Shown here one piece after another: positions 336 through 5,282 of a stretch of 5,282 nucleotides of DNA; the first letter of the stretch is position 1, and the number at the start of each line of letters is the position of its first letter. The DNA is from a virus. The DNA lies in IMG/VR virus record IMGVR_UViG_3300029183_000168, positions 1 to 5,282 of that record. The stretch is one strand, 5' to 3'. The notes beneath the pieces are model-generated. The model did not search any database and was not told the DNA's origin. It was given only the letters and a program-made list of their open reading frames with translations. The position numbers and the translations under genes were made by a program.

Positions 336-782
336 ATGGGTATGTTCACTCGTGATCCGCGTCCTGGTGTTGATACGGGTCCTGGCCGTACTAAGCAGTC
401 ATTTAGAGATGATTGCGATATTAATGTTATTGTAGAGAAGCATGCTAAGACTGGTTTTCTGAATGCTTTGCAGGTGCCACCGCCAATGTATTTGGATTTG
501 GCTAGTGTTCCTGACTATCAGACTGCGGCTAATTATATGGCTACGTCTGAACAGTATTTTATGACTTTGCCTGCCCAGGTACGTGCTGAGTTTCAGAATG
601 ATGTTTCGCAGTTTATTGATTTCCTTGCGCAACCTGATGCGCATGAGAGGTTGAAGGATGTTGGACTAGCGGCAATTGATGAGATTGCTGATGATCCTAA
701 GTTGCCTGAACCGGAGCCTGTGGCTGGAGCGGATGCCCCGGTGCCGGCACCGGATGTTCCTGCTACGGATGTAAATCCGTAA
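336..782 (+). CDS. VP3: Internal scaffolding protein VP3 (gokushovirus-type)
   Basis: The ORF encodes 148 aa. A GAGG at 324..327 lies 8 nt upstream of the ATG, and the start is 2 nt after the VP2 stop. The N-terminal ...TKQSFRDDCDINVIVEKHAKTG... block matches what I recall as the conserved gokushovirus VP3 signature. Its position after VP2 is canonical. A second in-frame ATG at 342 is an alternative start. Confidence 0.8.
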   Translation: MGMFTRDPRPGVDTGPGRTKQSFRDDCDINVIVEKHAKTGFLNALQVPPPMYLDLASVPDYQTAANYMATSEQYFMTLPAQVRAEFQNDVSQFIDFLAQPDAHERLKDVGLAAIDEIADDPKLPEPEPVAGADAPVPAPDVPATDVNP

Positions 783-793
783 TGTTTTTTCCC

Positions 794-863
794 TGGCGGC
801 GGTCCGTCTTTTCGTACGCGTGCGCGTTCACGCGCGCGTGTGTGGGATGACGGCCCGCCGCCA
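794..863. other. Nested GC-rich stem-loop made of an outer and an inner stem
   Basis: The outer stem pairs 794..806 (tggcggcggtccg) with 851..863 (cggcccgccgcca), 13 positions with 1 mismatch. The inner stem pairs 816..826 with 831..841 around the loop ttca, giving 11 pairs of which 2 are G-T. The tracts 815..826 and 829..844 are strictly alternating pyrimidine-purine. Confidence 0.7.
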
Positions 864-870
864 ATTCCTT

Positions 871-901
871 CCGCGCGTAGCGCGGGCCCGCGTTAAGCGG
901 G
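871..901. other. Two adjacent short GC hairpins that overlap a 12-nt perfect palindrome
   Basis: The first hairpin pairs ccgcgc (871..876) with gcgcgg (880..885) around the loop gta. The second pairs cccgc (887..891) with gcggg (897..901) around the loop gttaa. The palindrome CGCGGGCCCGCG at 881..892 is its own reverse complement. Confidence 0.65.
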
Positions 902-914
902 TATTATTAAAAGT

Positions 915-953
915 AAAAATCCGGGGTTGCCGAAGGCAACGCCGGATTTTTTT
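915..953. terminator. Bidirectional rho-independent terminator
   Basis: A GC-rich stem pairs 921..930 (ccggggttgc) with 936..945 (gcaacgccgg), 9 bp plus one G-G mismatch, around the loop cgaag. Seven T follow on the + strand (947..953). An A5 run (915..919) precedes the stem, which reads as a T5 run after the same hairpin on the minus strand. Confidence 0.8.
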
Positions 954-985
954 CCTTTGTATGGCGCCAAGGCTTCGCCTGCGCT

Positions 986-1062
986 GCACACTTACTTCTT
1001 GCTGTAAGTGTGCCGACTGACACCGTCAGTCAGAGGGGGCCCCCTTGACAGAGGACCCCCTC
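986..1062. other. Three consecutive perfect stem-loops
   Basis: The first pairs gcacacttac (986..995) with gtaagtgtgc (1004..1013), 10 bp, around the loop ttcttgct. The second pairs gactgac (1015..1021) with gtcagtc (1025..1031), 7 bp, around the loop acc. The third pairs gaggggg (1033..1039) with ccccctc (1056..1062), 7 bp. The third stem-loop also contains the 12-nt palindrome AGGGGGCCCCCT (1034..1045). Confidence 0.7.
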
Positions 1063-1073
1063 GGTGTTATGTT
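1045..1073 (+). promoter_or_regulatory. Candidate sigma70-type + strand promoter
   Basis: The -35 element TTGACA (1045..1050) is a perfect consensus. A 17-nt spacer follows, then an extended -10 TG (1065..1066) and the -10 hexamer TATGTT (1068..1073, 4/6). It sits just downstream of the terminator, which is the logical position for driving a genome-length + strand transcript. The predicted start is near 1080. Confidence 0.4.
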
Positions 1074-1077
1074 TAAT

Positions 1078-1338
1078 TTATTTCTTCTTCTTTGGTGTTT
1101 CGATCTCCATTTGGTTTGGATCGGTTTCGCTGTCTTCGAGGAAAAGTATGTATGCTGAGGTTTGGTCGATGATGGCTCTCTGCCTGCGAGCCTTTGTGAG
1201 TAGGTTGGCTCTCATGGCTGTGAGTGCTGGATTTCCTGCTGGTGCTTGTGCGAGGTTGTTGAGTTCGGCCTCGGTTGCCTCGAGCGCTGCTTGCTGGCGC
1301 TGGAGCTTTGCGCGTTCGCGCGTCAGCGGAGTGGTCAT
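1078..1338 (-). CDS. Hypothetical 86-aa hydrophilic, predicted helical or coiled-coil protein with a KKKK C-terminus, encoded opposite to all other genes
   Basis: The ATG start (1338..1336) is preceded on the minus strand by AACAAGGAGGTCAA, a strong SD with 4-nt spacing. The amino-acid composition is balanced and protein-like (MTTPLTRERAKLQRQQAALEATEAELNNLAQ...). Codon position 1 is purine-rich and T-poor. A candidate promoter lies upstream and a bidirectional terminator lies downstream. I recognise no family. The fully overlapping + strand ORF 1064..1342 looks like its shadow (see noticed_but_rejected). Confidence 0.5.
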   Translation of the reverse strand: MTTPLTRERAKLQRQQAALEATEAELNNLAQAPAGNPALTAMRANLLTKARRQRAIIDQTSAYILFLEDSETDPNQMEIETPKKKK

Positions 1339-1394: not shown

Positions 1395-1422
1395 GTGTTT
1401 TTTGTAACAGGAGTGTAACAGT

Positions 1423-1779
1423 ATGAAGACGTGTTTGCAGATTGATTACGAAAGCCTGCGGTATTTCGAGGCGGATGAGTTTGATCATCCTGAGCGGATG
1501 AGTTTAGACTTCCTGTTACTTCTCGATCGCGTGCGTGGGCATGCGGGAGTTCCGTTTAGAATTTCGAGTGATTGGCGTGGCGACTCCCGTTCCCACGATA
1601 GCGGTTGTGCTGTTGATGTTTTATATGAGAATGAGACTGAGTTGTGGCATATTGTTTTTTCAGCTCAGTTGCTTGGTATTCGTCGGATCGGTATTTATGA
1701 TGAGCATGTGCATCTTGACATTGCTGATCGGACGATTTTCTTGCCGTCGCCCCGAATGTGGCACGGTATTTCTCGTTAG
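1423..1779 (+). CDS. Zinc D,D- or L,D-peptidase of the LAS/M15 superfamily (Peptidase_M15_3 / DUF882-like); candidate peptidoglycan hydrolase or endolysin
   Basis: The ORF encodes 118 aa. An AGGAG lies 9 nt upstream of the ATG. The H-x2-G-x-A-x-D motif SHDSGCAVD supplies H58 (1594..1596) and D65 (1615..1617). The H-x-H motif HVHLD supplies H95 and H97 (1705..1713). The surrounding pattern is F..DEF......M...FL..LD.VR...G.PF.I.S.WR. No signal peptide or TM segment is present. Confidence 0.75.
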   Translation: MKTCLQIDYESLRYFEADEFDHPERMSLDFLLLLDRVRGHAGVPFRISSDWRGDSRSHDSGCAVDVLYENETELWHIVFSAQLLGIRRIGIYDEHVHLDIADRTIFLPSPRMWHGISR

Positions 1780-1794
1780 CCTTGGAGGCTAATT

Positions 1795-1923
1795 ATGGCG
1801 AAGCGTCGCCGGATGTCTGGTCGTGGTTCGCGCCGTCAGTTTTCCCGTAGTGCCGGCGCTGGTTCTGTCCACCCTAAAAATCGGCTGCGTGCGCGGCCGA
1901 TGCGCGGAGGTATTCGTCTATAA
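1795..1923 (+). CDS. Small arginine-rich DNA-binding/packaging protein (phiX174 J / gokushovirus ORF8-VP8 analogue)
   Basis: This ORF is not in the supplied track. It encodes 42 aa: MAKRRRMSGRGSRRQFSRSAGAGSVHPKNRLRARPMRGGIRL. A GGAGG at 1784..1788 lies 6 nt before the ATG. Twelve of the 42 residues are R. The ...HPKN..RARPMRGGIRL C-terminus matches my recollection of gokushovirus ORF8-type proteins. Confidence 0.75.
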   Translation: MAKRRRMSGRGSRRQFSRSAGAGSVHPKNRLRARPMRGGIRL

Positions 1924-2030
1924 TGCCGGATGAAGTGATTCAGGCTTTGTCGTATTTGGTTGTGGCTTTTGTGAGCTGGTTCTTGCCTGCTCCGCGTTCT
2001 AAGAGTAAGCGTACTCGTAAGGACGACTAA
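1923..2030 (+). CDS. Hypothetical 35-aa single-pass membrane peptide with a basic C-terminal tail; holin or single-gene-lysis candidate
   Basis: This ORF is not in the supplied track. It encodes MPDEVIQALSYLVVAFVSWFLPAPRSKSKRTRKDD. Its ATG overlaps the stop of the preceding gene (TAATG at 1921..1925). Its stop at 2028..2030 lies 3 nt before the VP4 ATG, so the ORF exactly fills an otherwise non-coding 110-nt gap. Wobble positions are T/G-rich like the other + strand genes. A hydrophobic core of about 19 residues is followed by RSKSKRTRK. Confidence 0.45.
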   Translation: MPDEVIQALSYLVVAFVSWFLPAPRSKSKRTRKDD

Positions 2031-2033
2031 GCT

Positions 2034-2972
2034 ATGCCTTGTTATAAGCCTGTATATGGTTCGTATGCCAGAGGTAAGTTTATTCCGACTGGTGGCCATG
2101 CTGGTGATACTGCGATGGGCAGTGTTTCTTTTGGTACGCCTATGAGTGTGCCTTGTGGACGTTGCATTGGTTGCCGGTTGGAGAATTCCCGGCAGTGGGC
2201 TGTGCGTATGATGCATGAGGCCCAGATGCATGATGAGGTTTGTTTTTTGACGCTCACCTATGACAATGATCATGTCCCTGAGGATTACGGTCTTGTTAAG
2301 GATGAGTTTCCTTTGTTCATGAAGCGGCTGCGTAAGGAGATTTCTAAAGGCGACGATGGCCCGTATGGGCATCGGCAGGTTTCGTATTTCCATTGTGGTG
2401 AGTATGGTGATGAACGCAAGCGGCCCCATTACCATGCTGCCATGTTTGGTATTGATTGGCATGAGGATAGAGTGCTTGCCCGCATGTCTAAGGGCGGTTA
2501 TCCCTTGCTGTGTTCTCCACGTCTTAATAAGACGTGGGGTAAAGGTGAAGTCACTATCGGTGACTTGACCTTCGAGTCTGCTGCGTATATTGCGCGTTAT
2601 GTGACTAAGAAGGTGACTGGTGCTAAAGCTGAGACTCACTATGAGCGTGTTGATAGTGAGACCGGTGAGATTTATTCTGTTGAGCCTGAGTTCGCCACCA
2701 TGTCGCGTAATCCTGCTATTGGTAAGCGGTGGATTGAGAAGTTCCATGAGGAAGTTTTTTCCCATGATGAGGTAATTTCGCGTGGCGTTCCTGCTAAACC
2801 TCCGAGGTATTATGATAAGTTCCACGAGAAGATTGACCCGGAGGCGGCGGAAGCCGTGCGTAGGAAGCGTATGCGTGCGTTTGACGCTCGCGAGGGTACT
2901 GCGTCGCGACTCGGTGTGCGTGAGGTGTGCGCTGAAGCTGGTTTGTCTTTAACTCCCCGAGGTGATGTGTGA
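2034..2972 (+). CDS. VP4: Rolling-circle replication initiator protein VP4 (HUH endonuclease, phiX174 A-like)
   Basis: The ORF encodes 312 aa. An AAGGA lies 10 nt upstream. The N-terminal PCGRCIGCRLENSRQWAVRMMHE block is present. Motif 1 is FLTLTYD. The HUH motif is PHYHAAMF, with H132-Y-H134 at 2427..2435. The twin catalytic tyrosines lie in YIARYVTKK, with Y185 at 2586..2588 and Y189 at 2598..2600. Confidence 0.92.
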   Translation: MPCYKPVYGSYARGKFIPTGGHAGDTAMGSVSFGTPMSVPCGRCIGCRLENSRQWAVRMMHEAQMHDEVCFLTLTYDNDHVPEDYGLVKDEFPLFMKRLRKEISKGDDGPYGHRQVSYFHCGEYGDERKRPHYHAAMFGIDWHEDRVLARMSKGGYPLLCSPRLNKTWGKGEVTIGDLTFESAAYIARYVTKKVTGAKAETHYERVDSETGEIYSVEPEFATMSRNPAIGKRWIEKFHEEVFSHDEVISRGVPAKPPRYYDKFHEKIDPEAAEAVRRKRMRAFDAREGTASRLGVREVCAEAGLSLTPRGDV

Positions 2973-3259
2973 AGATTTTTGCGATTTATGATGATAAGTC
3001 TATGGCTTTTCAGCGGCCGTTTCCTGGTGAGACGGCTGGAGTGGTTACTCGTTCGTTGACGGATGTAGTTAATGACCCCAACCATGAGTTTTGTAAGTAT
3101 ACTGAGGATTTTATTCTGCATGAGCTGGGTGAATTTGATGAGCGGACAGGCGTGATCACCCCTTGTGAGACTGGCCCTGTCGTCGTGTGCCGGCTCTCGG
3201 CGCTCAAGGTGACCGGGACCCCTGAGCTGGTCGACGAGGCCAGGGAGGCGATGAAATGA
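2969..3259 (+). CDS. Small conserved gokushovirus non-structural protein (ORF5-like), function unknown
   Basis: The ORF encodes 96 aa. Its GTG start at 2969 overlaps the VP4 stop (GTGA). A GAGG at 2959..2962 lies 6 nt upstream. The sequence (M)KIFAIYDDKSMAFQRPF...VNDPNHEFCKYTEDFILHELGEFDERTG resembles a small protein I recall between VP4 and VP1 in gokushoviruses. The first in-frame ATG is at 3002, which would remove the conserved-looking N-terminus. Confidence 0.7.
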   Translation: MKIFAIYDDKSMAFQRPFPGETAGVVTRSLTDVVNDPNHEFCKYTEDFILHELGEFDERTGVITPCETGPVVVCRLSALKVTGTPELVDEAREAMK

Positions 3260-4857
3260 TGCGTGTGCCATCCACTCAACAGCATCGTTTCAGTGAGGTT
3301 CCACAGGCGAATATCCCGCGTTCGTCGTTTGATCGTTCGCATGGATATAAGACTACTTTTGATGCTGGTTATTTGATTCCGTTCTATTGTGATGAAGCGT
3401 TACCAGGTGATACGTTTAGTATGCGTGTTACTGCTTTTGCGCGATTAGCTACGCCGCTTAAGCCCATAATGGACAACTTGTTTATGGACTTTTTCTTTTT
3501 TGCGGTGCCTAATCGGTTGCTTTGGAATAATTGGGAGAAGTTCAATGGAGCCCAGGATGATCCGGGAGATAGCATTAGTTTTACTGTGCCAACTGTGTCT
3601 GGTTCTAATTTCCCTGCTGCTGGCTCTCTTGAGGATTATTTCGGTATTCCTGTTGCTGATTATAGCCCTGAAACTGTTACTTGGAACAACCTTCATGGAC
3701 GGGCATATAATTTTATTTGGAATGACTGGTTTAGAGATGAGAATCTACAGGATAGTGTAGTTGTTGATTTAGATGATGGCCCGGACAATCGTTCGGATTA
3801 TGTGTTGTTGAAGCGTGGCAAGCGCCATGATTATTTTACTTCGTGCTTGCCTTGGCCGCAGAAGGGTACTGCTGTTTCGATTCCTCTTGGTACGCAGGCT
3901 CCTGTAAAGGGTATTGGTAAGGAGTCTCTTGCTGAGACGACTGGTTCACAGACTGTGTTCGAGACTGGTGAGAGTGCTGCAACGTCTTTCGCTCGTTGGC
4001 ATAGTTTTGCTTCTGGTGGTGCTGATGAGATTTTCGTGGAGACTGTATCGCCGGGATATCCGGCTGTTTTTGCTGATCTTACTAATGCTACCGCTGCTAC
4101 TATTAATGACCTGCGTAATGCTTTCCAGACGCAGAAGTTGATTGAGCGTGATGCGCGTGGTGGTACTAGGTATATTGAGATTGTGCGTTCACACTTTGGT
4201 GTCATTTCGGATGATGCACGGATGCAGCGCCCCGAGTATCTCGGTGGTGGTACTGTTATGGTTAATGTGAGCCCTGTTGCTAATACTTCTGGTAATACCG
4301 GAGGTTCTGAGAATGTTAATCAAGGTGACCTGGCCGCGTTTGGTACTGCTTCTGCTCATGGTATTGGTTTTCATAAGTCTTTTACCGAGCATTGTACTTT
4401 ACTTGGTCTTGTTTGTGTCCGCGCTGATTTGACGTATCAGCAAGGTATGGAGCGTATGTGGTCGCGCCAGACTCGGTATGATTTTTATTGGCCGGCTCTG
4501 GCTCATATTGGTGAGCAAGCGGTTCTGAATAAGGAGATTTATACTACTGGCGTGGATGCTACTGATGATGCTGTTTTTGGTTATCAAGAGCGTTATGCGG
4601 AGTACCGGTATAAGCCTTCGAGGTTGACTGGCCTAATGCGTTCGACGCAAACTAATAGTTTGGATATCTGGCATTTGGGTCAAGAGTTTACTACTGCTCC
4701 TGCGCTTAATGCCGCCTTTATTGAGGAGAATCCTCCTGTCGATCGTGTCATTGCTGTGACTACTGAGCCGCATTTTATTTTTGATGCTTATCTTAGTCTC
4801 CGGTGTGCTCGACCGATGCCGTTGTACGGTGTTCCTGGTAATATTGATAGGTTCTAA
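3256..4857 (+). CDS. VP1: Major capsid protein VP1 (Microviridae F-protein family)
   Basis: The ORF encodes 533 aa. An AGGGAGG lies 7 nt upstream, and the ATG overlaps the previous stop (ATGA). The hallmark blocks FSEVPQANIPRSSFDRSHGYKTTFDAGYLIPFYCDEALPGDTF, MDNLFMDFFFFAVPNRLLW and TINDLRNAFQTQKLIERDARGGTRYIEIVRSHFGV are present. Confidence 0.95.
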   Translation: MMRVPSTQQHRFSEVPQANIPRSSFDRSHGYKTTFDAGYLIPFYCDEALPGDTFSMRVTAFARLATPLKPIMDNLFMDFFFFAVPNRLLWNNWEKFNGAQDDPGDSISFTVPTVSGSNFPAAGSLEDYFGIPVADYSPETVTWNNLHGRAYNFIWNDWFRDENLQDSVVVDLDDGPDNRSDYVLLKRGKRHDYFTSCLPWPQKGTAVSIPLGTQAPVKGIGKESLAETTGSQTVFETGESAATSFARWHSFASGGADEIFVETVSPGYPAVFADLTNATAATINDLRNAFQTQKLIERDARGGTRYIEIVRSHFGVISDDARMQRPEYLGGGTVMVNVSPVANTSGNTGGSENVNQGDLAAFGTASAHGIGFHKSFTEHCTLLGLVCVRADLTYQQGMERMWSRQTRYDFYWPALAHIGEQAVLNKEIYTTGVDATDDAVFGYQERYAEYRYKPSRLTGLMRSTQTNSLDIWHLGQEFTTAPALNAAFIEENPPVDRVIAVTTEPHFIFDAYLSLRCARPMPLYGVPGNIDRF

Positions 4858-4859
4858 TT

Positions 4860-5282
4860 ATGGATCCGCTGACTATCGCTGCTGTTGGCTTGCCTTTGTT
4901 AGGTGCTGCTTCTTCGGCTTTTGGTCAACGCTCTGCTAATAAGACTAATGTTAAATTGGCGCGTGAGCGCATGCAGTTTGAAGAGCAGATGAGTTCTACT
5001 GCTTGGCAACGTGGTACTGATGATATGCGTAAAGCTGGCATCAATCCTATGTTGGCCGCTGGTCTTGGTGGTGCTACCGGTGGTAGTGGTGCGCAGGCTC
5101 AAGTTGGTAATGTTGGTGCTGCTGCTACCGAAGGTGCATCTAGTGCTATGGCTATGCGTGTTGCTAAGAAGAATGTTGATCTCATGGACCAGAATATTCA
5201 GCATGCTCGTGCTGTTACTGCTAAGGAGAAGTGGCTTGGTGACCAGGAGTTGTTGAAGTATCGTGCTGCTGAGGCTCGTTAT
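4860..5282 (+). CDS. VP2: DNA pilot (minor capsid) protein VP2, N-terminal part. It is open to the window end and continues at 1..333 in the circular molecule, giving 218 aa in total.
   Basis: This ORF is not in the track because it has no stop within the window. The ATG at 4860 lies 2 nt after the VP1 stop. I translated it by hand with no stop through 5282: MDPLTIAAVGLPLLGAASSAFGQRSANKTNVKLARERMQFEEQMSSTAWQRGTDDMRKAGINPMLAAGLGG... The block N..LA....FQE.MS.TA.QR...DM..AG.NPMLA is, as I recall it, the conserved VP2 signature. Confidence 0.88.
   Translation, partial: MDPLTIAAVGLPLLGAASSAFGQRSANKTNVKLARERMQFEEQMSSTAWQRGTDDMRKAGINPMLAAGLGGATGGSGAQAQVGNVGAAATEGASSAMAMRVAKKNVDLMDQNIQHARAVTAKEKWLGDQELLKYRAAEARY
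5184..5282. repeat. Terminal direct repeat, copy 2, identical to 1..99
   Basis: It is an exact 99-nt match to the start of the window. Confidence 0.95.

Follow-up and report, generated by a model that had tools for sequence, protein, structure and literature searches.

Peptidases of the M15_3 type have been known from microviruses since 2012, when their genes were described in five Gokushovirinae and six Alpavirinae, horizontal acquisition was inferred, and a role as endolysin was proposed (Roux et al., 2012; PMC3394797). One of these genes adjoins an ORF of unknown function on the complementary strand (PMC3394797). In several microvirus families, peptidases are now recognised as accessory genes associated with lysis, and there is evidence of their exchange (Kirchberger, 2022; PMC9239249); they also occur in cultured microviruses, namely the Occultatumvirinae roseophages (PMC11499846), vB_RpoMi-Mini (PMC9865509), and phiHBP1 (PMC13064476). 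Gokushoviruses lack a gene resembling phiX174 E, and their mode of lysis is experimentally open (PMC7062461). For Gp7 of the Tainavirinae member Ebor, a protein of 146 aa, the available portion of the published report describes peptidoglycan degradation in a zymogram, called by its authors the first experimentally verified case for an ssDNA phage; in that portion, Gp7 is identified through an HHpred match to PDB entry 6SSC and not as an M15 enzyme (PMC11980548). The literature searched yielded no biochemical test of a microviral M15 peptidase, which is not proof that none exists.

The gene described here was singled out by an original prediction, made from the DNA alone, as a LAS/M15 zinc peptidase and candidate endolysin of a microvirus. 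The novelty of such a gene was overrated in that prediction, M15_3 peptidases of Gokushovirinae and Alpavirinae having been described since 2012 (PMC3394797). Such peptidases are now treated as standard accessory lysis genes of microviruses. The general picture of microviral M15 peptidases, in the literature since 2012, is unchanged; what is new is a divergent M15A-like peptidase subfamily, invisible to Pfam, that is resident in gokushoviruses at a fixed position between VP3 and VP4.

The DNA analysed (5,282 nt; hereafter the window) covers the complete circular genome of a gokushovirus-type microvirus, with 5,183 unique nt, its first 99 nt being identical to its last 99 nt, an overlap that closes the circle. 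All core genes lie on the + strand, and the peptidase ORF sits in the accessory region, in the interval between VP3 and VP4 (Table 1). An Rfam scan of the whole window at E≤1 returned no match.

Table 1. Coordinates of the genes, motifs, and non-coding elements of the window, with the evidence for each.
Feature	Position	Strand	Evidence or remark
VP2 pilot protein, 218 aa	4860, across the junction, to 333	+	
VP3 scaffold protein	336-782	+	PF09675, E=9e-32
36-nt non-coding block	998-1033		100% identical in sister genome
Sigma-70-like promoter, TTGACA-17-TATGTT with TG	1045-1073	+	upstream of module; both hexamer regions conserved in L001
Complementary-strand ORF, 86 aa, basic (pI 9.2), helical	1078-1338	-	divergent from peptidase gene; AAGGAGG Shine-Dalgarno
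Shine-Dalgarno AGGAG of peptidase gene	1409-1413	+	9 nt upstream; kept in sister genome
Candidate endolysin, single-domain LAS/M15A-like zinc peptidase gene	1423-1779	+	ORF, homologues, fold, selection
Arg52 codon in [ST]-S-x-[YFW]-R motif; probable substrate-carboxylate binding residue	1576-1578	+	R in 100/101
H58-x6-D65 block (SHDSGCAVD), first two predicted zinc ligands	1594-1617	+	codons H58 1594-1596, D65 1615-1617; H in 99/101, D in 98/101
H95-V-H97-L-D99: predicted catalytic His, third zinc ligand, conserved Asp	1705-1719	+	family alignment
Arg-rich ORF, 42 aa, probable DNA-binding/packaging protein	1795-1923	+	phrog_10695, E=1.4e-12
35-aa ORF, candidate membrane-access partner	1923-2030	+	hydrophobic segment at residues 5-24, basic C-tail
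VP4 replication initiator	2034-2972	+	PF23343, E=1e-19; phrog_942, E=1e-108
VP5	2969-3259	+	PF20577, E=4e-22
VP1 major capsid protein	3256-4857	+	PF02305, E=4e-176

The peptidase ORF runs from an ATG to a TAG and encodes a protein of 118 aa (13.9 kDa, pI 5.4). Its Shine-Dalgarno sequence lies inside a direct repeat, TGTAACAG-GAG-TGTAACAG (1403-1421), and the block TTTTGTAACAGGAGTGT[A/G]ACAG hardly varies from the window to the sister genome (locus L001). All the motifs named in the original prediction were found at their residues and are conserved across 101 relatives: the two histidine blocks listed in Table 1, and upstream of them F15..D18-E19-F20 and G42.PF.I.S.WR52. Ahead of the first histidine, I47-S-S-D-W-R52 is the peptidase's version of the [ST]-S-x-[YFW]-R motif, which we take to be typical of the Peptidase_M15_3 family; R52 presumably binds the substrate carboxylate, as assumed from general knowledge of M15 enzymes. 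The N-terminus is hydrophilic and the Kyte-Doolittle maximum is 0.95 (17-residue window), so that the hydropathy scan revealed no signal, SAR, or membrane segment, in agreement with the predicted absence of a signal sequence.

Database searches with the peptidase alone were nearly empty. Pfam gave no match at E≤0.1 and none even at E≤10, NCBIfam and PDB sequence (phmmer) searches gave nothing, and the sole PHROG match was a marginal one to phrog_894, an endolysin family (E=0.042). A word-indexed homologue search found only the peptidase itself and one relative 71% identical to it. A profile built from these two sequences and run exhaustively with HMMER against 1.84 billion representatives recovered 985 proteins at E≤1e-3 and 112 at E≤1e-10, mostly single-domain proteins of 110-135 aa, of which 101 were aligned for the conservation counts. 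PF08291 (Peptidase_M15_3) was matched by 48 of these 101 at E≤1e-3, the best at 8.3e-22; the other Pfam matches were to PF05951 (Peptidase_M15_2/DUF882; eight relatives), the Hedgehog N-domain (two), and VanY (one). Ten of the 13 closest relatives matched PF08291 at E≤1, and one of the 13 gave a marginal match to Peptidase_M15_4. Relatives deposited in GenBank carry the labels endolysin, carboxypeptidase, or peptidase. The Pfam search suggested as a check on the original prediction, had it been limited to the peptidase, would have led to a wrong dismissal of the LAS/M15 assignment, since that search is empty.

Sequence homology to solved LAS members was reached at the profile level only. The family profile matched Hedgehog N-domains among PDB sequences at E=7e-5 with both blocks of the zinc site aligned, H58-x6-D65 lying against H..GRAVD of the Sonic hedgehog N-domain and H95-x-H97 against its HIH, and it matched 1lbu, the zinc D-Ala-D-Ala carboxypeptidase of Streptomyces albus G, at E=0.0085. 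The LAS signature, H-x(3-6)-D followed by H-x-H, is present in the right order and in conserved family columns. The motif residues named in the original prediction are the most conserved columns of the 101-sequence alignment (H95 90/101, H97 100/101, D99 89/101, R38 101/101, F15 100/101, E19 96/101, and F20 97/101; H58, D65, and R52 are given in Table 1). An AlphaFold2 model built from this alignment reached a mean pLDDT of 95.1 and a pTM of 0.87, superseding an unusable run from a two-sequence alignment (pLDDT 57.8). Its leading Foldseek matches in the PDB are mostly LAS enzymes (1lbu, ChiX, the RB49 and LysECD7 endolysins, VldE, MepA, and Ply500), with modest E-values of 0.01-0.3, and the top solved match is 1lbu (probability 1.00, TM 0.54). 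Among the predicted viral structures of BFVD, it matched phage proteins named Peptidase M15 or M15A with values reaching a TM of 0.80, an rmsd of 1.7 Å, and E=1e-10, and among these proteins are the peptidases of Microvirus mar50, mar54, and mar59. The model thus indicates a LAS fold, in line with the PF08291 matches of the relatives and the PDB matches of the family profile. The peptidase is a divergent, minimal, single-domain member of the LAS superfamily (MEROPS clan MD), closest to M15A/Peptidase_M15_3. It stays below the PF08291 threshold itself and belongs to that family transitively, through its homologues, and is therefore filed as a divergent M15A-like relative, not as a Pfam-defined member.

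The family profile's best PDB sequence matches being Hedgehog N-domains, an inactive or repurposed LAS domain with a binding or regulatory function of the Hedgehog kind, which would cleave no wall, has to be weighed. The peptidase has also lost a family-typical residue: position 74 is Arg in 87 of the 101 relatives, Leu in the window, and Met in the sister virus, a change that could alter specificity. The zinc and catalytic positions are nevertheless all retained, the relatives carry annotations such as phage peptidase or endolysin and are found in such a context, and the gene evolves under constraint, which together make a repurposed domain very improbable. Against its 71% identical orthologue in L001, the peptidase gene has a dN/dS of 0.45 (core genes 0.26-0.36), a value that indicates that it is under purifying selection.

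Residence in the virus is borne out by several lines of evidence. Two Logan assemblies, SRR4039778 and SRR4039777, carry this very protein flanked by the same neighbours, and the sister virus, which comes from three or more unrelated samples, has its orthologue in an identical gene order. A search of IMG/VR for related loci with the 13 closest sequences, together with the traced family representatives, placed a peptidase in the VP3-VP4 slot of at least 10 related gokushovirus genomes. For each of the four closest traced representatives (P0003, P0004, P0005, and P0012; 40-50% identical), the source is a gokushovirus contig of 4.5-4.9 kb with the gene order VP3, peptidase, (small ORF), VP4, and in four more IMG/VR gokushoviruses the slot holds a peptidase of 33-38% identity beside the Arg-rich small ORF. 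Peptidase identity to the window drops in parallel with that of VP1 and VP4: it is 71% in L001/L002 (VP1 79-81%, VP4 74%), 51% in L051 (67%, 55%), 49% in L052 (61%, 47%), 47% in L054 (47%, 40%), 40% in L053 (46%, 37%), and 33-38% in L019, L022, L037, and L049 (44-56%, 37-43%). This pattern, as far as sequence comparison goes, fits long residence and mostly vertical descent.

The T-rich wobble usage that the original prediction had read as a mark of a long-resident gene is present as described. At third codon positions, the peptidase gene has T 0.47 and A 0.07, as compared with 0.47 and 0.06 in VP4 and 0.56 and 0.07 in VP1; base composition is continuous across the gene, and codon bias and strand skew match those of the core genes. 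These observations bear on a possible assembly artefact, in which a bacterial or tailed-phage fragment would have been joined to a microvirus contig, as could be suspected from the nearest deposited VP1 relatives, whose genomes are shorter by 0.4-1.1 kb and, in the two checked, have no peptidase gene. Separate assemblies agree on the gene order, which is also that of the sister virus from at least three samples, and at least eight further gokushovirus genomes hold the gene in the same slot. A chimeric assembly was excluded on recurrence, synteny, codon bias, continuous composition, and circular closure, and its probability is vanishingly small; recurrence, shared codon bias, synteny, and parallel divergence all speak for the long-resident gene that had been proposed.

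Descent within the clade is less uniform. The deposited relatives at 62-64% VP1 identity have genomes of 4.0-4.8 kb, and a family-HMM check of two of them, in the range of 4.2-4.8 kb, detected no peptidase, so the gene is dispensable within the clade. Tailed-phage homologues are nearly as close to the window peptidase as those of gokushoviruses (39-45% identity), and a neighbour-joining tree of 33 peptidases over 117 columns is star-like, with gokushovirus and tailed-phage sequences interleaved; the tree was displayed without bootstrap values, includes an ORF (L010) that is probably in the wrong frame, and does not separate single from multiple acquisition. Because of the gene-less VP1 relatives, the near tailed-phage homologues, and the unresolved tree, the gene may have been gained, lost, or exchanged within the clade. 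When bacterial and archaeal genomes were scanned for signs of a host, two distant matches in Bacteroidales MAGs were all that emerged, and no host was inferred.

That close virus relatives infect without the peptidase also bears on a role in entry, in which a hydrolase carried by, or delivered with, the virion would open the wall locally for the VP2 pilot tube and the DNA to cross the periplasm. In tailed phages, structurally similar M15A-like domains occur as fusions with tail, Gp5-like, and tape-measure proteins, and the available portion of the Ebor report mentions traces of Gp7 in virions (PMC11980548). The window peptidase, however, is a stand-alone soluble protein of 118 aa, unfused to VP1 or VP2, the T=1 capsids of gokushoviruses have no known slot for a peptidase, and among tailed phages the closest homologues stand alone as well, one of them next to a holin gene. 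We consider an entry-associated function unlikely.

The reading that we prefer, and regard as probable, is that the peptidase is a zinc-dependent endolysin that stays in the cytoplasm until the inner membrane is breached and then lyses the cell. In the predicted active site, the zinc ion would be held by H58, D65, and H97, catalysis would fall to H95, possibly with D99, and R52 would bind the substrate carboxylate. Because it has no export signal, the enzyme would build up in the cytoplasm; a breach of the inner membrane would then give it access to the peptidoglycan, where it would cut peptide stems or cross-links, upon which the cell would burst and free the virions. Having neither a signal nor a membrane segment, the peptidase needs a membrane-breaching partner, which supports the earlier suggestion of an access factor. 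Function as an endolysin is suggested by analogy with the homologues, through their family matches and a holin neighbour: a 41% identical tailed-phage homologue (L012) has a holin (phrog_3427, E=3.6e-28) immediately upstream, and another (L013), flanked by small membrane ORFs, matches the endolysin family PHROG 894 at 1e-19.

No convincing holin or spanin candidate was found in the window genome. Together with the lack of an export signal, the lack of a convincing holin would fit an enzyme that acted from within the cytoplasm, cleaving precursors (D-Ala-D-Ala or the UDP-MurNAc-peptide stem) and so starving wall synthesis, with holin-free lysis at septation. Microviruses are known to lyse by blocking precursor supply, and among LAS relatives VanX and VanY act on peptidoglycan precursors. 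Such an enzyme would be the enzymatic counterpart of phiX174 E. Yet none of the 101 relatives matches the VanX model and one matches VanY, VanX is absent from the top 50 PDB fold matches, and the nearest homologues resemble canonical holin-partnered endolysins; precursor cleavage is accordingly given a low probability.

For the preferred endolysin, the breaching factor could be the hydrophobic 35-aa ORF that lies 144 nt downstream of the peptidase gene, or another small membrane protein. Between the two lies the Arg-rich ORF, which is 79% identical in L001 (dN/dS 0.32) and adjoins the peptidase in L019, L022, L037, L049, and L051-L054. The 35-aa ORF occupies exactly the interval from the Arg-rich ORF to VP4 and reaches a 17-residue Kyte-Doolittle maximum of 2.04. 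It matches no PHROG family and is unlike the peptide in the same slot of L001, L051, and L052, so that its sequence is not conserved even in the sister genome. The slot peptides of those three loci share a conserved hydrophobic C-terminus (...RYQISHWLGW[VI]AAIAQA...) and have no relatives in the protein collection or IMG/VR, and the more distant peptidase-bearing relatives have no small-peptide slot at all. The T-rich strand abounds in hydrophobic ORFs in alternative frames, and hydrophobicity is for this reason weak evidence of a membrane partner when taken by itself.

The complementary-strand ORF upstream of the peptidase is probably a gene. It is called in all assemblies, and comparison with L001 gives 61% amino acid identity, no stops, and a dN/dS of 0.26, better than every other frame. 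It has no homologues outside its own lineage, and Pfam returns only weak noise of the coiled-coil type; it is possibly part of the same accessory module as the peptidase. Within the non-coding block at 998-1033 lies a perfect hairpin, GACTGAC-ACC-GTCAGTC (1015-1031), and the complete identity of the block in the sister genome contrasts with the 47-81% identity of the proteins of the two genomes. Tentatively, and with considerable doubt, the peptidase and the 86-aa gene may, together with a small membrane peptide and the conserved hairpin and promoter, form a regulated microvirus lysis module.

As an observation in its own right, the complementary-strand gene and the perfectly conserved hairpin with its promoter are more unusual than the peptidase itself. 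A dif/XerCD site was also considered at 1063-1076, where TTATGTTTAAT resembles a XerD arm; it was rejected on inspection only, as no XerC arm precedes it.

The subfamily is of interest beyond this genome. A minimal M15A-like peptidase of about 110-135 aa escapes standard Pfam annotation while it diverges alongside the capsid and Rep genes, and surveys that rely on Pfam therefore under-count the lysis enzymes of microviruses. The window peptidase is a compact candidate with which a microviral M15 enzyme could first be tested biochemically, and it raises the question of how an endolysin is delivered by a 5-kb phage that has no recognisable holin or spanin.

Among enzymes of known structure, the zinc carboxypeptidase of S. 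albus G has the same H-x6-D/H-x-H zinc site, whereas it is 213 aa long as against 118 aa and 13% identical, and the bond it cleaves need not be that of the window peptidase. We take it to be the type enzyme of MEROPS M15A, with an extra N-terminal peptidoglycan-binding domain. ChiX, the T5, RB49, and LysECD7 endolysins, and Ply500 have the LAS fold in common with the window peptidase and serve in lysis or wall remodelling, but belong to other M15 branches and give weaker structural scores (TM 0.38-0.51); ChiX and the T5, RB49, and LysECD7 endolysins are L-Ala-D-Glu endopeptidases. Among lysis proteins of microviruses, phiX174 protein E has a lysis function in the same virus family, but it is an overprinted, non-enzymatic, MraY-blocking membrane protein, whereas the window encodes a predicted soluble enzyme, with an enzyme fold, in a non-overlapping gene of its own, and so falls outside the E-like class of small, usually overprinted membrane proteins. 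Ebor Gp7 is a peptidoglycan hydrolase encoded by a microvirus, and its zymogram activity demonstrates that muralytic enzymes can be part of a microvirus gene set; it is comparable to the window peptidase in the latter's proposed function (PMC11980548).

Closer counterparts are the M15_3 or "Peptidase M15A" endolysins of tailed phages (PHROG 894; for example that of Pseudoalteromonas phage H105/1), which have about 110-125 aa, the same motifs, and no signal peptide, are 35-45% identical to the window peptidase, and superpose on it as predicted structures with a TM of 0.8. In tailed phages, the gene stands in a lysis cassette with a recognisable holin, as in L012, whereas the window has no recognisable holin or spanin. 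The microviral M15 genes described in 2012 and later encode the same kind of stand-alone, small accessory peptidase with a proposed role in lysis, and the case with a complementary-strand ORF resembles the window in this respect too (Roux et al., 2012; PMC3394797). The window peptidase differs from them in being only 29-35% identical to deposited microvirus peptidases, in escaping detection by Pfam PF08291, and in its position between VP3 and VP4, where other families carry the gene between VP4 and VP1 or between VP1 and VP4.

The record ends in an exact direct repeat of 99 nt (positions 1-99 and 5184-5282), which is the assembly overlap of a circular genome whose true length is 5,183 nt and whose pilot protein, VP2 (218 aa), crosses the circle junction from 4860 to 333. 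Measured against its nearest deposited relatives by major capsid protein (VP1), the genome is ∼0.4-1.1 kb larger, and most of this excess is made up by a GC-rich non-coding region following the scaffold gene VP3, a complementary-strand ORF, and the M15-like peptidase gene. The coordinates of these and neighboring features are collected in the table.

Features around the peptidase gene of the window and their counterparts in related gokushovirus genomes
Feature	Coordinates	Strand	Description
GC-rich non-coding DNA, ∼295 nt	783-1077		after VP3
Imperfect palindromes	794-863 and 874-899		in GC-rich region
Hairpin, 17 bp	915-951		in GC-rich region, between A and T runs
Perfect hairpin	1015-1031		GACTGAC-ACC-GTCAGTC, inside 36-nt conserved block
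Sigma-70-like promoter	1045-1073		TTGACA-17-TATGTT with TG; downstream of conserved block
86-aa ORF	1078-1338	-	basic (pI 9.2), helical; divergent from peptidase gene
Direct repeat	1403-1421		TGTAACAG-GAG-TGTAACAG, brackets Shine-Dalgarno of peptidase
85-aa overprinted ORF	1535-1792		very hydrophobic; +1 frame inside peptidase gene
One-TM ORF of pre-VP4 slot	window 1923-2030; L001 2884-3024; L051 to 2280; L052 to 746		
VP4-overlapping alternative-frame ORF	window 2356-2568; L019 68-241; L022 938-1183; L037 3001-3258; L049 996-1253		

Presence of the peptidase is polymorphic within the clade, as family HMM searches detected no peptidase in L058 (KP087949) or L059 (MW202893), which share 62-64% VP1 identity with the window, while the peptidase-bearing genomes L051 and L052 lie at a similar VP1 identity (67 and 61%, respectively). 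The window protein carries leucine at position 74 (codon 1642-1644), where arginine is typical of the family (87 of 101 aligned relatives) and is kept in L051 and L052; the sister virus, L001, has methionine at this position. Loss of Arg74 may reflect altered substrate binding in the window/sister lineage.

Several non-coding elements accompany the gene. The 17-bp hairpin resembles a bidirectional terminator, and an analogous hairpin of different sequence occurs in L001. Further downstream, in a non-coding block of 36 nt (998-1033), the window and L001 match at every position (100% identity), against only 47-81% identity for their proteins, and the promoter that follows the block is also conserved in both genomes. 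Together, the block and promoter region possibly constitute a promoter/operator of the accessory module, or else a replication signal. The direct repeat at the peptidase Shine-Dalgarno site, nearly unchanged in L001, could be bound by a regulator of translation or transcription.

Hydrophobic ORFs are found both within and beyond the peptidase gene. The frame of the ORF overprinted on the peptidase is broken by a stop in L001; the T-richness of the strand probably accounts for this ORF, which is unlikely to be an embedded holin gene. In several gokushoviruses, the replication initiator gene VP4 is also overlapped by an ORF in an alternative frame, which has a single strongly hydrophobic segment (exemplified in L019, L037, and L049 by ...HITMRCFLVL.FWIV...LMYGGP.LW...). 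This ORF could encode a membrane or lysis protein overprinted on VP4, or could be a mere echo of VP4 conservation. Directly ahead of VP4, four related genomes encode a small one-TM ORF in two unrelated forms: in the window, an acidic N-terminus is followed by a TM segment and a basic tail, and in L001, L051, and L052, the N-terminus is basic and the C-terminus is hydrophobic and conserved (RYQISHWLGW[VI]AAIAQA). Relatives were sought for both forms and none was detectable; each form is a candidate for the peptidase's partner in the membrane.

Microvirus genes are normally laid out on a single strand. The complementary-strand ORF is preceded by a strong ribosome-binding site (AAGGAGG), and its third-codon-position usage mirrors the bias of the plus strand. 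Its L001 orthologue (2049-2315, minus strand) shares 61% identity with it, contains no stops, and gives a dN/dS of 0.26, compared with 54% identity, two stops, and a dN/dS of 0.42 for the plus-strand frame sharing its wobble positions, and it outscores all other frames in the window-L001 comparison. A homologue search outside this lineage returned none. These coding signatures suggest that the ORF is probably a real gene, and one complementary-strand ORF, likewise adjoining an M15 peptidase, has been described in a microvirus (Roux 2012, PMC3394797).
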